DNA from: a virus
Length of the DNA: 46,841 nt
Strand: one strand, 5' to 3'
IMG/VR virus record: IMGVR_UViG_3300029867_000012
Below, in pieces: positions 12,385 to 29,319 of the stretch; position 1 is the first letter of the stretch, and every line of letters begins with the position of its first letter. A program made the position numbers and the translations under genes. The notes under the pieces were generated by a model. The model had not been told where the DNA came from. It worked only from the letters and a program-made list of their open reading frames with translations, and did not search any database.

Positions 12385-12900
12385 TTAGAATGGGATATCG
12401 TCATCAAAAGCATCCCCAACATCAGGACCAGCAGGCTGATACCCTTGATTCTGTTGCGGCTGATACCCTTGATTCTGTTGCGGCTGCTGCTGGCTCTGCT
12501 GCTGGCTCTGTTGTTGCGGTTGGCTAGGCTGCTGTTCGGGCTGCTGGTTGTCGCCTTTACTGTCCAGCATTTCCATATCGCCGGCAATTATTTCTGTGCT
12601 ATACCGATCCTGTCCACTAGCTTTATCTTGCCATTTGTTGGTTACGAATTTACCGGAAATAAAAACTTTAGAACCCTTCTTTAAGAATTGTCCACAAATA
12701 TCCGCAAGCTTCCCAAAAGCAACAATATTTATCCAGTTCGTTACCTCAACTTTAGTCCCTGACTTGTCTTTGTAATCGTCTCCACACGCTATACTAAACT
12801 TGGCTACAGGAGACCCGCCCGCCGTATATCTAAGGTCTACATCCTGACCTAGGCGGCCTATAAATTTACAGTCATTAAGATTTTTCAATTTTTTCTCCAA
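12385..12900 (-). CDS. ssb: Single-stranded DNA-binding protein
   Basis: N-terminal OB-fold signature (NxxxxIGRLGxDxxLRYTxxGxxVAxFSIA), a Q/P/G-rich linker and the acidic C-terminal tip DDDIPF. Confidence 0.9.
   Translation of the reverse strand: MEKKLKNLNDCKFIGRLGQDVDLRYTAGGSPVAKFSIACGDDYKDKSGTKVEVTNWINIVAFGKLADICGQFLKKGSKVFISGKFVTNKWQDKASGQDRYSTEIIAGDMEMLDSKGDNQQPEQQPSQPQQQSQQQSQQQPQQNQGYQPQQNQGYQPAGPDVGDAFDDDIPF
12434..12508. repeat. Perfect in-frame tandem duplications in the ssb linker (24 nt x2, 12 nt x2)
   Basis: 12434-12457 equals 12458-12481, and 12485-12496 equals 12497-12508. Read directly. Confidence 0.9.
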
Positions 12901-14960: not shown

Positions 14961-15872
14961 ATGGCAGCTTTACCTTATATGCAGCTATATGTGGCCGATT
15001 ACATCGCTGATACGTTCCATTTAACGACGGAGGAGAACGGAGCTTACTTGCTGCTAATGATGAATTATTGGCAAACAGGCAAACCGATTCCTAGGAAGCG
15101 TTTAGCTGGCGTTGCACGCTTGTCTAACGAACGTTGGACGGACGTTGAGGAAGTGTTGAGTGAATTTTTCAATGTGACTGAAACACACTGGCAACATGAC
15201 CGAATTGACCGTGATCTTGAGTTCGTTTTAAGCAAATCTATTAGTTCTTCAAAAGGTGGAAAAGCGTCAGCAGCGGCCAGAAAGCGTAAAAAAGAACAGG
15301 AATCCAACGAAAAACCAACGAACGTTAAACAGACGTTGGGCGAACGTTTAGCTAGTGTTGCAACGGAAAAGGAACGAGACTCTAACCATAAAGATAAAGA
15401 TAAAGATAAAGATAAAGATAAAGATAAAGATAAAGATAAAGATAAAGATAAAGATACAAAAGCATTGTCGAGCAAGCCCGACATACCGGTTTCTGATGAT
15501 GTTCAGGAAATATTTAATCATTGGGTTTACAGAATGGGCAAAACCGATCAAACAAAACTCACTAAAAAACGAAAATCTAAAATCATTGACAGACTCAAAG
15601 ATGGCTACACGGTTGATTATATTAAATCGGCTATCGATGGTTGCGCTAAATCGCCGCATCATATGGGCCAAAATGACCAGGGAACGGTGTATGACGATAT
15701 TGAGCTAATTTGCCGAGAGAGCACGAAAATGGAAAATTTCGCGGACAACATAGCAAAAATAACCCCAGCGGATCCCAGACAACCGGAAACCATTGCCCAG
15801 TTTCAGCAACGATCAATGCGGGCAGCCCAGGACGTTATTGACTCAGGATTTTTAGACGACCTACCGGATTAA
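14961..15872 (+). CDS. Replication initiator-type protein: DUF1376 (YdaU-like) N-domain, (Lys-Asp)11 linker, phage conserved C-terminal domain
   Basis: 'LPYMQLYVADYIADTFHLTTEENGAYLLLMMNYW' matches the DUF1376 signature. 'FNHWVYRMGK...RLKDGYTVDYIKSAIDG' resembles the Phg_2220_C-type domain. Confidence 0.7.
   Translation: MAALPYMQLYVADYIADTFHLTTEENGAYLLLMMNYWQTGKPIPRKRLAGVARLSNERWTDVEEVLSEFFNVTETHWQHDRIDRDLEFVLSKSISSSKGGKASAAARKRKKEQESNEKPTNVKQTLGERLASVATEKERDSNHKDKDKDKDKDKDKDKDKDKDKDTKALSSKPDIPVSDDVQEIFNHWVYRMGKTDQTKLTKKRKSKIIDRLKDGYTVDYIKSAIDGCAKSPHHMGQNDQGTVYDDIELICRESTKMENFADNIAKITPADPRQPETIAQFQQRSMRAAQDVIDSGFLDDLPD
15390..15455. repeat. (AAAGAT)11 perfect hexanucleotide microsatellite, in frame (KD x11)
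   Basis: Counted directly as 11 uninterrupted copies. Confidence 0.95.
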
Positions 15873-18089: not shown

Positions 18090-18114
18090 CATTATGACGC
18101 TAGTGTCATATATT
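18086..18114 (+). promoter_or_regulatory. Near-consensus sigma70 promoter TTGACA-17-TATATT with palindrome in spacer
   Basis: Read directly. The spacer contains TATGAC-gctagt-GTCATA. The -35 box overlaps the stop of the Ref-like gene. Confidence 0.6.
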
Positions 18115-18170
18115 TATATTTCAAGTTATACAAAATAACATTTAACATTTAACAATTAAAGGACAAAACA

Positions 18171-18464
18171 ATGAAGCTCGCAGACGCACTATTAAGACGT
18201 AAAGAATTACAGGAAAAGGTAAATCAGGTTCGAGCTGTAAAGGATAAAGATTTGTTTGAAATGAGATTTGAGCGAAAACAGATCAATGAAAATATTGATG
18301 ACATTGCAGCACAGGTGCCTAAATGTAGCCTTAACCAGGTAACGGCAGAATATGACTATTACGCTAACAAATTGAGATTAATCGATGGTGCTATCCAGCA
18401 GTTGAACTGGACCACAGACATATCAGTCAATCCTAAGGTTTGGGTAGATTTCGCGGACAAGTAA
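18171..18464 (+). CDS. Helical protein, short DIP1984-family-like (tentative)
   Basis: 97 aa. 'MKLADALLRRKELQEKVNQVR' and 'IDGAIQQLNWTTDI' resemble the two ends of DIP1984-family proteins. AAAGGA SD upstream. Confidence 0.35.
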   Translation: MKLADALLRRKELQEKVNQVRAVKDKDLFEMRFERKQINENIDDIAAQVPKCSLNQVTAEYDYYANKLRLIDGAIQQLNWTTDISVNPKVWVDFADK

Positions 18465-18606
18465 AAAGTTTTAGGTGTTCAAGGCGACTCGAAAAGGCTT
18501 GCTCCGTGCCTAAAACGGTCAGATGTTGCGCGACATCGTTGCCCTCGCTGAGAGGTTAAATCAGCATCCAGATGCTAATTGGAGTCATGAGCATGACGTT
18601 AAAATA

Positions 18607-18711
18607 CTCGACTAACTCCGAATACTGTAACAATTAACGCGTAATCATCCGAATATTAGAACCTCCGAATTTATAAGCCCGACTGTTATAAATCCGACTA
18701 ACCAACCGAGT
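18607..18711 (+). repeat. Array of 6-7 same-orientation CCGAMT-core direct repeats (iteron-like)
   Basis: CTCGACT 18607, TCCGAAT 18617, 18648 and 18664, CCCGACT 18678, TCCGACT 18693, ACCGAGT 18705. Confidence 0.6.
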
Positions 18712-18828
18712 GATTGAGCACCACCTATTTTATAGAGCTAATTAAAGACCATAAATGTCTATTTATTGAGATACCGATAGATATTTCAGAAAGAATTATG
18801 ATTAACAATTAACAATTAAGGAAAAAAA

Positions 18829-19140
18829 ATGGATATTAACGAACTAACATTAGGTCAAATAAAAGAAATTCAAAATATGGCGTATCAGATTCCTGAAGAT
18901 CACAAGGCGCATCTCGAATATCGTCAATATATTGGCGAACGCCCAACTATTTACGCGATGAACTATATTTATACGGGTGATTGTGTAGCGATTGTAGGTG
19001 ATTCTATTGTTTTTGAAAACGCAATGATTGTGTATAACACCGGTGACCACAAAACAGTTGATTGGTCCGATGCGGAGCAGATGCCCGGAAAATGGAGCGT
19101 GGCAATGCAATCAATTGAAAGCCACGGTATTTTCAAGTAA
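18829..19140 (+). CDS. Hypothetical protein
   Basis: 103 aa. AAGGA SD is preceded by AACAATT AACAATT. Confidence 0.7.
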   Translation: MDINELTLGQIKEIQNMAYQIPEDHKAHLEYRQYIGERPTIYAMNYIYTGDCVAIVGDSIVFENAMIVYNTGDHKTVDWSDAEQMPGKWSVAMQSIESHGIFK

Positions 19141-19164
19141 ACGAAGACTAAAGGGGGTCCAGCT

Positions 19165-19386
19165 GTGATGAAACGTAGCAAATTGGCACGGTCTTGGTCT
19201 AGGTCTAGTTCTGGGTCTTGGTCTTGGTCCAGATCTGGGTCTAGGTCTTGGTCCAGATCTGGGTCTAGGTCTTGGTCCAGGTCTGGGTCTGGGTCCAGAT
19301 CTGGGTCTTGGTCTCGGTCCAGGTCTGGGTCTGGGTCCAGGTCTGGGTCTGGGTCCAGGTCTGGGAGCGGTAAAGATGATGCGTAG
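19165..19386 (+). CDS. X-Ser dipeptide-repeat protein 1 (coding strand uncertain)
   Basis: AAGGGGG lies 7 nt before the GTG-ATG. A basic leader is followed by about 29 alternating (W/R/G/S)-Ser units. Co-oriented with flanking genes. Confidence 0.45.
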   Translation: MMKRSKLARSWSRSSSGSWSWSRSGSRSWSRSGSRSWSRSGSGSRSGSWSRSRSGSGSRSGSGSRSGSGKDDA

Positions 19387-19573
19387 GAATAAATTAAAAA
19401 GGTCCGGTTCTAGTTCTGGTTCTAGAACTAGGCAAAGGTCTAGTTCTGGGTCTAGTTCTGGGTCTTGGTCTTGGTCTTGGTCTTGGTCCAGATCTGGGTC
19501 AAGATCTGGGCCAAGTTCTAGAACTAGAAACAAGTCCAGATCTGGGTCCAGGTTTGTGTCTGGTAGCGGGTCT
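19190..19573. repeat. Two blocks of imperfect GGTCTN hexanucleotide repeats (19190-19365, 19401-19573)
   Basis: Read directly. Higher-order 18- and 24-nt units are present, and several frames on both strands are open through the blocks. Confidence 0.95.
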
Positions 19574-19591
19574 AATAATGCGTGGGAATAA
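19376..19591 (+). CDS. X-Ser dipeptide-repeat protein 2 (coding strand uncertain)
   Basis: GGGAG lies 8 nt before the ATG. The leader MMRRNKLKR is homologous to that of ORF1, and the start overlaps the ORF1 stop. Confidence 0.45.
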   Translation: MMRRNKLKRSGSSSGSRTRQRSSSGSSSGSWSWSWSWSRSGSRSGPSSRTRNKSRSGSRFVSGSGSNNAWE

Positions 19592-19594
19592 CAA

Positions 19595-19771
19595 ATGAAC
19601 TTAATGTGTAAGATTTTCGGCCACAAAAATAAATTGCTTTTTGACATGCCTACCGCATGCGTGAGGTGTGGTCAAGAGAGACCGGCAGTAAAACTAAAAC
19701 ACATTCCCCCGATGCCAAAAGTTAAGCAGCTTAAAAATGGCGATCGATGTGGTAAAATAAGATTCGATTAA
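19595..19771 (+). CDS. Small Cys-containing protein, 58 aa (below cutoff)
   Basis: The N-terminal MNLMCKIFGHK motif is reminiscent of DUF1660-type small prophage proteins, and CVRC is present. The SD is weak. Confidence 0.4.
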   Translation: MNLMCKIFGHKNKLLFDMPTACVRCGQERPAVKLKHIPPMPKVKQLKNGDRCGKIRFD

Positions 19772-27922: not shown

Positions 27923-28114
27923 ATGAGCACAAAAGCAACTTCGCGCGATGCAATAGCAGTAGTTCTAACCACCGCCTCCGCACTTTTCCCGCGCAACGGC
28001 TCGAATAAAGTCATCTATGAGGAGATCACACCAGGCGGCTCAACGTATGACACACCGGGGGATTTAACGGGCCTTCGAGCTGATCTGGTTGACGCTGTGG
28101 ACAAACTGGGTTAA
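27923..28114 (+). CDS. Hypothetical protein
   Basis: 63 aa, tightly packed with its neighbours. Confidence 0.6.
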   Translation: MSTKATSRDAIAVVLTTASALFPRNGSNKVIYEEITPGGSTYDTPGDLTGLRADLVDAVDKLG

Positions 28115-29319
28115 TGGCGTCTCCTACGGTAGTTGCGGAAACTCCCAGCAATGACGACAACGCGACAACATCATTTACAATATTAACCGGCTCTCCCCTT
28201 GAAGGTGAGGGCGTTGTTATCTTCCTGTCTAGGGATAACGGGGGAACCGGTACGGTTTCGTGGTCAGACGGCTATACCGAGTTATACGATTTAAACGACG
28301 ACGACGGTTTTTCCAGCGGCGCAGCGGCCTATAAACAGGCGGGAGCGTCTGAGCCGTCGTCTATCACGGTAACTGCTACAGTCTCCGGGGAATTCACGGC
28401 TCGCGCGTACAGAATATCGGGACACCTAAGTTTTGCTACACAGGCCCCCGATGTAGGAACAGTCACTAACGGTGGCAACACTGTTACTCATGACCCACCG
28501 AGCGTTAATGTAACCGGCGGCGCGGCGGATATTTTATCGTTTGCTGTATTGCCGTTTGACACTCACAATTCAGACGTTAATACATTTCCTTCGAGTTATA
28601 TTAACACTGGTGTTACGAGGTCTGGCGTCTCTGGCTCTCAATGCTCCCTAGCATTTTGCACTAGGGCGATAACGTCTGTATCCAGCGAAGATCCCGGCGC
28701 TTTTACGTTATCAGCTACGAGACGAGGCATTCCTACCACTGTATTAGTGCAGGAAGACGCGGCTAGCGGTAGCGCAATCACTGCAGACGTTGACGAGGCT
28801 GGCGATACCACAAGCGCCACACTTGAGGTTACTGTTAGTGTTTCCGCAAGCGTAGCAGAAGCGGGGGACACCACAAGCGCCGCACTGAATAACATTGTTA
28901 GTATTAACGCTAACGTGGCCGAAGCAGGAGACGCCACAACCGCGGCACTGGCCACCATCGTTAGCATTACCGCCAATCAAACAGAGGCCGGCGATACAAC
29001 AACAGCTACTCTAAATAACATTGTTAGCATTAGCGCTAACGTAGCCGAGGCTGGCGATACCACGGCGGCCAGTCTCACAGTTGGCGGCCTATCTCAAATA
29101 ACTGCCAATGTCAACGAGGCGGGCGACACCACAAGCGCCACGCTGAATAACATTGTTAGCATCACGGCAAGCGTGGCTGAGGCTGGCGACAGTACAGCGG
29201 CGGCGATATCAACAGGCGCCGCATTAATCGCGGCTACTGCTGAAATTGACATTTTCCCAGCTTATGGGGGACAATCGAATATAATCCCCGCTTATACTGC
29301 CATGGTTGACATATTATGA
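28114..29319 (+). CDS. Repeat-containing putative virion surface protein
   Basis: 401 aa. An N-terminal globular domain of about 225 aa is followed by about seven 21-aa repeats (AEAGDTTSAxLNNIVSIxANV). Confidence 0.7.
   Translation: MASPTVVAETPSNDDNATTSFTILTGSPLEGEGVVIFLSRDNGGTGTVSWSDGYTELYDLNDDDGFSSGAAAYKQAGASEPSSITVTATVSGEFTARAYRISGHLSFATQAPDVGTVTNGGNTVTHDPPSVNVTGGAADILSFAVLPFDTHNSDVNTFPSSYINTGVTRSGVSGSQCSLAFCTRAITSVSSEDPGAFTLSATRRGIPTTVLVQEDAASGSAITADVDEAGDTTSATLEVTVSVSASVAEAGDTTSAALNNIVSINANVAEAGDATTAALATIVSITANQTEAGDTTTATLNNIVSISANVAEAGDTTAASLTVGGLSQITANVNEAGDTTSATLNNIVSITASVAEAGDSTAAAISTGAALIAATAEIDIFPAYGGQSNIIPAYTAMVDIL
28792..29220 (+). repeat. About 7 tandem 63-bp (21-aa) in-frame repeats, diverged at synonymous sites
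   Basis: Read from the translation and the DNA. One unit is 23 aa. Confidence 0.85.

Follow-up and report, generated by a model that had tools for sequence, protein, structure and literature searches.

Hexamer arrays in an uncultured lambdoid-type phage point to a widespread module of Ser-repeat peptides and a predicted Sm-like partner protein

IMG/VR virus record IMGVR_UViG_3300029867_000012, a stretch of 46,841 nucleotides (nt) that was analysed as a whole and is called the window here, contains two neighbouring arrays of GGTCTN hexamers that are open for translation on both strands. Comparison with relatives indicates that the arrays are two real small + strand genes, each encoding a peptide in which Ser alternates mostly with Trp, Arg or Gly (X-Ser peptides). 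The same comparison indicates that such peptides are paired, across thousands of uncultured phages, with an acidic protein of predicted Sm/LSm-like fold, the partner, whose gene lies directly upstream. The initial annotation of this DNA had favoured the + strand genes and knew of no matching phage family. The Ser codons of relatives and their shared leader/stop plan now settle the first point; on the second, we found no published description of the module in the open-access literature. We therefore rate the pair of partner and peptide as a new kind of phage module, one that appears to be widespread in uncultured phages.

Tandem Repeats Finder agreed that the repeats form two hexamer blocks on the + strand. 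Array 1, (GGTCTN)~29, lies at 19190-19365 and was reported with periods of 18, 24 and 42; array 2, at 19401-19573, is more degenerate and was reported at 19409-19521 and 19437-19519 with periods of 6, 12, 18 and 30. Both + strand open reading frames (ORFs) that had been proposed are in the ORF list, as is a - strand ORF of 178 amino acids (aa) at 19111-19647. ORF1 (19165-19386) has the leader MKRSKLAR, a (Ser-[W/R/G/S])n repeat encoded as (TCT/TCC-NGG)n and the tail KDDA; its product is 73 aa long from the GTG at 19165 or 72 aa from the ATG at 19168. ORF2 (19376-19591; 71 aa) has the leader MMRRNKLKR, a degenerate (Ser-X)n core and the tail NNAWE. The Shine-Dalgarno-like sequences reported earlier can be read directly from the sequence: AAGGGGG at 19151-19157 is 7 nt from the GTG and 10 nt from the ATG of ORF1, and GGGAG at 19363-19367, within the 3' end of ORF1, is 8 nt from the ATG of ORF2 at 19376. 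The start of ORF2 does overlap the stop of ORF1, in ATGATGCGTAG, and the whole leader-repeat-tail unit is tandemly duplicated, again as described. Near the ends of both arrays, AGC codons are found at Ser positions. Both peptides have a net charge of +14 and an isoelectric point (pI) of 12, and an AlphaFold2 single-sequence model of the ORF1 peptide alone is mostly coil, with a predicted local distance difference test score (pLDDT) of 58.7 and a predicted template-modelling score of 0.20. We detected neither a signal peptide nor a domain match in the X-Ser peptides. By charge and model, these peptides are strongly cationic and disordered.

A scan for the DNA pattern of the arrays matched at least 120 viral contigs (numbered with the prefix L below). 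In these the same frame always gives a short ORF with a leader of 7-15 aa, Ser alternating mostly with Trp, Arg or Gly, and then a stop no more than a few residues after the repeat; most commonly there is no tail at all (0 aa). This plan of leader, (Ser-X)n and immediate stop is common to 153 X-Ser ORFs from 97 loci. The relatives' peptides are 40-110 aa long and consist of leader and repeat only, with cores made up of 49% Ser, 15% Gly, 14% Arg and 14% Trp. Tandem copies are not peculiar to the window: many contigs carry from 2 to about 10 X-Ser ORFs, and within one contig the leaders are nearly identical and the cores different. Flanking long ORFs were co-oriented with the X-Ser frame in 89 cases and opposite to it in 22.

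Clustering of 552 ORFs neighbouring the arrays yielded one dominant neighbour, a protein of 85-115 aa encoded directly upstream on the same strand, which in the window is the 103-aa product of 18829-19140 (+ strand). No modifying enzyme, kinase or other neighbour besides this protein recurred among the 552, and what looked like a second, 'opposite-strand' cluster was a spurious ORF antisense to partner genes of one type (type A). The initial annotation was thus right that the + strand holds tandem small genes but had overlooked the upstream partner. Using a profile hidden Markov model, we found the partner directly upstream in 74 of 97 locus-strands; 6 more were cut by the contig end. We also made the converse comparison, which is independent of the array DNA pattern. 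All 25 loci retrieved only by the partner motif W[VI]AD[ST]GRF (L133-L157) carry an X-Ser ORF directly downstream, 24 of them scored by script and one, a degenerate copy in L136, read by eye. The same holds for every contig reached via partner proteins (L125, L126, L127 and L129). The two genes meet as ATGA (-4) in 32 cases and as TAATG (-1) in 6. Such overlapping of stop and start is the usual sign of translational coupling, suggesting that partner and peptide are coupled in most relatives. In the window, 24-27 nt separate the partner stop from the ORF1 start, and a Shine-Dalgarno-like sequence precedes ORF1 itself. Leader type tracks partner type: type A partners, which include that of the window, occur with basic leaders such as MKRSLKQKW, and type B partners with MNxxILRTGFD-like leaders. 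Across the family the median charge is -3 for the partner and +7 for the peptide core.

Some layouts depart from this scheme. In the window the partner gene and ORF1 share a reading frame, with one TAA between them (…GIFK*TKTKGGPAVMKRSK…, 19138-19168), so that readthrough would add the repeat as a tail to the Sm-like domain; this layout is not conserved, the genes overlapping out of frame (ATGA) in most relatives. In a subgroup with the leader MIKKSIYKRNI (L037, L038, L054, L056, L072, L096 and L119), and in L063, which encodes a repeat variant rich in Ser, Trp, Leu and Phe, there is no recognisable Sm-like partner directly upstream, and in L038, L054 and L096 an unrelated 112-aa ORF takes its place. 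Such partnerless X-Ser ORFs may form a branch of their own or may work with some other partner.

The window partner has a net charge of -8 and a pI of 4.7. Its AlphaFold2 model (pLDDT 86.4) consists of helices at residues 8-18 and 23-34 followed by five strands. When the model was compared with the PDB using Foldseek, nearly all of the top 50 matches were Sm/LSm chains, with E-values down to 1.4e-4 and template-modelling scores, relative to the target, of 0.74 and, at the highest, 0.76. The model thus shows the defining layout of the Sm fold, an N-terminal helix and then a strongly bent five-stranded beta sheet, and we predict that the partner has an Sm/LSm-like fold. Among predicted viral structures, its matches include a Gordonia phage 'RNA binding protein' and DUF6948 proteins. 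At the sequence level we found no Pfam, PHROG or NCBIfam match to the window partner, and a profile search of PDB sequences gave none either. The Sm1 and Sm2 sequence motifs are likewise not evident, the Pfam LSM model PF01423 touching 1 of 36 family members at an E-value of 0.021, below the cut-off. The family profile retrieved at least 7,270 clusters at E <= 0.001, all unnamed and without a Pfam domain, and a profile built from the window partner and its four closest homologues retrieved 274 representatives at the 50% identity level. The partner family is large, known from metagenomes only, and without a name or database model.

The choice of Ser codon in relatives bears on whether protein or nucleic acid is under selection, and on which strand. 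The Ser positions of X-Ser ORFs are filled by TCT, TCG, TCA, AGC, AGT and TCC, and the dominant Ser codon of partner-retrieved loci was TCG in 11, TCA in 7, AGC in 6, TCT in 2 and AGT in 1. Since Ser is drawn from both codon boxes, no nucleotide motif explains the pattern, and the comparison indicates that selection acts on the amino-acid pattern and not on the DNA. The sense product stays Ser-[W/R/G], whereas the product of the alternative sense frame shifts with the Ser codon between Gly-Leu, Gly-Arg, Gly-His/Gln and Gly-Ala, and the antisense product shifts between Pro-Arg, Pro-stop, Pro-Ala and Pro-Thr. By the genetic code, TCN-NGG hexamers leave several non-Ser-X frames stop-free for most N; the codon-aligned antisense frame (CCN-NGA) is stop-free with TCT, TCC and TCG and acquires TGA with TCA. 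A long antisense ORF is therefore expected from composition alone, and because openness of a frame is uninformative, we decided the question with relatives.

These data refute the idea that the 178-aa - strand ORF, with its Asp-X and then Pro-Arg repeats, is a real gene, and we regard it as a by-product of repeat composition. It is the longest ORF in the region, and its equivalents have been called as genes in relatives by the JGI and ENA pipelines (195, 139 and 117 aa in L161, L163 and L164, the 195-aa call being that of JGI). The initial annotation had further observed that the one variable base falls at third positions of Pro codons on the - strand, the pattern expected of antisense selection. 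This argument falls, because other lineages use TCG, TCA, AGC and AGT. A proposed acidic propiece with a Pro-Arg cationic peptide fails as well. The antisense product is not conserved across Ser-codon classes; in the TCA lineage L129, TGA occurs in every unit of the codon-aligned antisense frame. The single difference between the window and a close relative, L002, in array 1 (AGA to AGG) is silent in the + reading but replaces Ser by Pro in the - reading. The antisense ORF also lacks a Shine-Dalgarno sequence and runs against the operon. Its overlap with the flanking + genes, by 30 and 53 nt, is plain from the sequence, and the stops that had been said to break the Pro-Arg frame in block 2 are seen in the six-frame translation. 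Taken together, these points leave an antisense gene practically no probability. That selection acts on the nucleic acid itself and the ORFs are incidental is largely refuted and seems to us very improbable, whether the feature is taken to be an array of DNA prone to slippage or bound by protein, an RNA fold, or a succession of GGTCT/AGACC sites. The initial annotation had listed a purely DNA-level array among its hypotheses, and the variation in Ser codons, including AGC and AGT, leaves no shared nucleotide motif beyond GG to support one; the start codon, leader, immediate stop and coupling to the partner are all conserved. The GGTCT/AGACC copies do all point one way, and the codons at the X position are 81-98% NGG in every Ser-codon class, with Gly nearly always GGG and Arg AGG or CGG. 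The window RNA also folds far better than shuffled sequences (z = -9.95). Folding z-scores are -5.6 to -7.6 in TCT arrays, whereas in AGC arrays they range from about -2 to +2 and are near zero in 5 of 6, so that folding is a by-product of the codon used. Together with the Ser-codon data, this leads us to reject an RNA hairpin as the selected feature.

More specific identities at the nucleic-acid level were also rejected. GGTCT is the complement of AGACC, which we take to be the recognition site of the Type III restriction enzyme EcoP1I, but the pentamer is not conserved, relatives using GGTCG, GGTCA and GGAGC units. A diversity-generating retroelement does not fit: both window arrays vary at the same position and neither is an all-A template, and the adenines of the Ser codons are invariant in TCA and AGC arrays (no search of the window for a reverse transcriptase was made). 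Sub-threshold Rfam matches to microRNA precursors merely reflect the long imperfect hairpins of the repeat. In + strand RNA from TCT-type arrays, G-U pairs and CCAGAUCUGG palindromes allow very long hairpins, albeit imperfect ones, to form (19141-19600), and these could affect translation or mRNA stability in the window phage.

Near-identical phages allowed us to follow change within the arrays. A 451-nt region is identical in the independent contigs L158 and L159, and the ORF1 protein is identical in at least 7 contigs from different samples; the arrays thus recur in independent contigs and are not an artefact of a single assembly, a concern raised at the outset. ORF2 occurs as alleles of 69, 71 and 75 aa, and the whole region as 445, 451 or 463 nt, so that all indels are multiples of 6 and the frame is kept. 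Array 2 is the fast-changing part: alignment of the window with L002 shows about 25 differences and a 6-nt indel in about 100 nt, with flanks that are 96-99% identical. These alignments indicate a rapid turnover of the arrays, in which 6-nt units are gained and lost, apparently through hexamer slippage under selection for the protein pattern.

We prefer to read the region as an early operon on the + strand of a lambdoid-type phage, holding a two-component module made up of an acidic Sm-like protein and cationic Ser-[W/R/G] peptides. For this explanation as a whole, including the function outlined here, we estimate a probability of about 0.5. The Sm-like partner would probably form a ring or other oligomer, and the leader would dock the peptide onto it; we propose docking on the grounds that partner and peptide are oppositely charged and that each type of partner comes with its own type of leader. 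Many side chains of Arg and Trp, held apart by Ser and Gly, would then be displayed on the complex, which would bind RNA, single-stranded DNA or a host factor weakly and multivalently and might form a condensate during early infection. The peptide would act in trans in the manner of the Arg-Gly tails of eukaryotic Sm proteins or of an Arg-Ser (RS) domain, and extra tandem copies would raise dose and variety. Among the functions suggested by the initial annotation, a disordered nucleic-acid-binding peptide of RS/SW type remains the best by this analysis. A bolder form of the proposal, which we offer tentatively and at rather long odds, is an Sm ring combined with sticker-and-spacer peptides. 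Here, the leaders would load hypervariable peptides, with Arg and Trp spaced by Ser, onto an acidic Sm-like oligomer, and in the early phase of infection the two together would either build a condensate of RNA and protein or capture immune proteins or the RNA machinery of the host. Single-base changes in NGG, together with slippage, would keep the repeats in flux among Trp, Arg and Gly.

Several observations weigh against the preferred explanation. The acidity of the partner (net charge -8, pI 4.7) does not favour direct RNA binding by this protein and, combined with the lack of Sm sequence motifs, makes such binding by the partner itself doubtful. Common ancestry by itself could account for leaders and partners varying together, and for about 15% of X-Ser ORFs the position directly upstream holds no recognisable partner. 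The NGG bias remains far above background codon usage, GGG making up only 19% of Gly codons in the other genes of the window, and suggests some nucleotide-level constraint or very fast turnover. One reading of the bias is that Trp, Arg and Gly are toggled by first-base changes, with TGG, the single Trp codon, holding GG in place, and that the arrays are young and homogenised by slippage; there may also be a constraint on GG in the mRNA. Finally, we found no cultured phage that carries the module. Its only GenBank phage records are two metagenomic ones, both from Manatee Spring, in which the peptide is unannotated or a 'hypothetical protein', and in a genome collection of 185,579 species it occurs in five metagenome-assembled genomes only.

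Other functions can be proposed for the same pair of genes. The peptides could be effectors that poison or shut off the host at its membranes, ribosomes or DNA, the Sm-like partner only neutralising, stabilising or delivering them; this differs from the preferred explanation, as far as the data go, only in the role assigned to the partner, and we think it unlikely. Antibacterial activity is established for peptides rich in Arg and Trp, among them indolicidin and synthetic (RW)n, and the very high positive charge and the Trp content of about 14% would agree with such an activity. The partner is oppositely charged, coupling would give matched amounts, and multi-copy arrays with fast turnover suit an arms-race effector. 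Set against this, half of the residues are Ser and 15% Gly, giving low hydrophobicity, the peptides have no signal peptide, and the module lies among early DNA-metabolism genes and not lysis genes. An anti-defence decoy or hook, in which exposed Trp or Arg-rich repeats bind and block a host immune protein, would agree with the early, variable and frequently multi-copy character of the module. Argonaute is bound by GW/WG 'Ago hook' repeats and defence proteins by sponges, and Trp flanked by Ser or Gly in a disordered chain may resemble the GW/WG motifs. Such a function would leave the obligate Sm-like partner unexplained, the data show no link to any defence system, and no comparable case was found in the open-access literature; we consider it improbable. 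Less probable still are precursors of modified products, either resembling ribosomally synthesised and post-translationally modified peptides (RiPPs) or carrying phospho- or glyco-Ser, with the leader as recognition element. A conserved leader on a hypervariable core and tandem precursor-like copies are what such a system would show. Weak matches to the SdrC and ClfA models point in the same direction, and the Ser-Asp repeats of staphylococci are glycosylated. The leader-core layout is indeed present, but the sole recurrent neighbour among the 552 ORFs is the Sm-like protein and no modifying enzyme, and we know of no RiPP-like system in which an Sm fold serves as the recognition element.

We compared the module with known systems that it resembles. 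Like SmD1, SmD3, SmB and LSm4 of eukaryotes, it combines a small barrel of (predicted) Sm fold with a disordered, Arg/Gly-rich dipeptide repeat. The Arg-Gly tails of Sm/LSm proteins contact RNA or partner proteins. In the module, by contrast, the repeat is the product of a separate, apparently translationally coupled gene and not a C-terminal tail, it alternates with Ser and contains about 14% Trp, and the barrel, known here from sequence and model, is acidic and without Sm sequence motifs. The RS domains of SR proteins and viral SR-rich regions share with the peptides alternating Arg-Ser runs, disorder and a basic character, and RS regions are associated with RNA binding and condensates. The peptides differ in having no RNA-recognition domain in the chain, in containing Trp and Gly as often as Arg, in their size of 40-110 aa and in their phage origin; of the features that define SR proteins (an RS run, an RNA-recognition domain and a dedicated kinase), we found no domain match in the peptides and no kinase recurring nearby. 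The Ser-Asp regions of the staphylococcal Clf/Sdr proteins are an X-Ser dipeptide repeat from the bacterial world, encoded by short DNA repeats and variable in length, but they are acidic spacers in large, secreted, cell-wall-anchored proteins. The matches of the peptides to the repeat parts of SdrC and ClfA are at chance level (E 0.078-0.083, against cut-offs of 1150-1700 bits), and the 72-aa peptide has no signal peptide, A domain or LPXTG anchor. The GGGGCC expansion of C9orf72 is likewise a hexanucleotide array open in several sense and antisense frames and yielding dipeptides such as Pro-Arg and Gly-Arg. That case is pathological, unconventional translation of a human non-coding repeat, whereas the arrays described here have a normal gene frame with start, leader and stop, and their other frames are not conserved. 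Among phage proteins, the nearest analogies are GoF, MotB.1 and Frd.2 of T4-type phages (PMC12152347), for which an LSm-like fold is predicted and a role in RNA suspected, and which in sequence do not resemble cellular Sm proteins. They resemble the partner in being early phage proteins with this predicted fold; they are unrelated to it in sequence, have no repeat-peptide gene and come from cultured T4-like phages, whereas the partner family is metagenomic only. We conclude that the module belongs to none of the known families compared, its partner resembling Sm proteins in predicted fold and not in sequence.

The extreme composition of the peptides and their tight coupling to an Sm-fold protein point to an undescribed kind of early phage function. 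Should the complex prove to bind RNA or to form condensates, phages would join the known range of Sm-type biology and of low-complexity sticker-spacer proteins, and an Sm ring with a sticker-spacer system, if real, would be a counterpart in bacterial viruses of eukaryotic Sm/LSm granule proteins, evolved independently. If, instead, the module acts as an effector or against host defence, it would represent a new class of such devices. The arrays are also a clean natural case of hexamer slippage shaping a coding repeat while selection maintains the protein pattern, and they warn that a long antisense ORF across such an array is an artefact of composition.

Annotation pipelines often overlook the peptide genes or call them on the wrong strand. 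Gene callers disagree on the window's close relatives, an ENA pipeline having called both + strand ORFs in L158 and others none, and GenBank MW202825.1 has no annotation for either the partner gene or the first peptide gene. Assembly is a further difficulty: five contigs end inside arrays (L001, L160, L163, L164 and L166), and a run of N interrupts the array of a distant relative, L128 (GCA_003191745.1). L134 is another assembly with a break or N run inside its array. Hence, array lengths are trustworthy only where several assemblies agree, and the family is probably under-counted owing to such breaks. Several searches were negative: nucleotide searches of a phage collection (megablast and blastn) gave no match, nor did the exact junction pattern in metagenome contigs, nor did a protein search with ORF1, the last because HMMER corrects for biased composition.

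The window is of lambdoid type, with a gene for a DUF1376 replication protein, a NinB-like gene and a DUF1660 gene around the arrays and late genes farther on; its large terminase is nearest to that of Vibrio phage 1.210.O (68% identity). A scan for promoters and terminators found nothing separating the three genes, the sole 'terminator', within array 1, being the repeat itself. The DUF1660 gene (19595-19771, + strand, 58 aa; Pfam PF07874, E 7.6e-6) begins 3 nt past the ORF2 stop and belongs to the same operon; we regard it as context outside the module. Small early genes on both sides of the module show mosaic exchange: 18092-18804 and the sequence beyond 19742 are absent or replaced in L002, which is otherwise 96-99% identical. 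Inside the DUF1376 replication gene (14961-15872) lies a perfect (ATAAAG)11.5 array (15388-15456) that encodes a (Lys-Asp)12 linker between the halves of the protein. Its copy number is 11 in the window, 10 in L002 and 8 in L001, and we infer from these differences that hexamer slippage is active elsewhere in the same phage. Other repeats in the window are a 63-nt period repeat in the late region (28833-29063; 3.7 copies, 69% matches), inside a 401-aa ORF at 28114-29319, and a perfect 24-nt repeat of 2.2 copies at 12434-12510, beside CTG and 12-nt repeats, inside a - strand ORF at 12385-12900.

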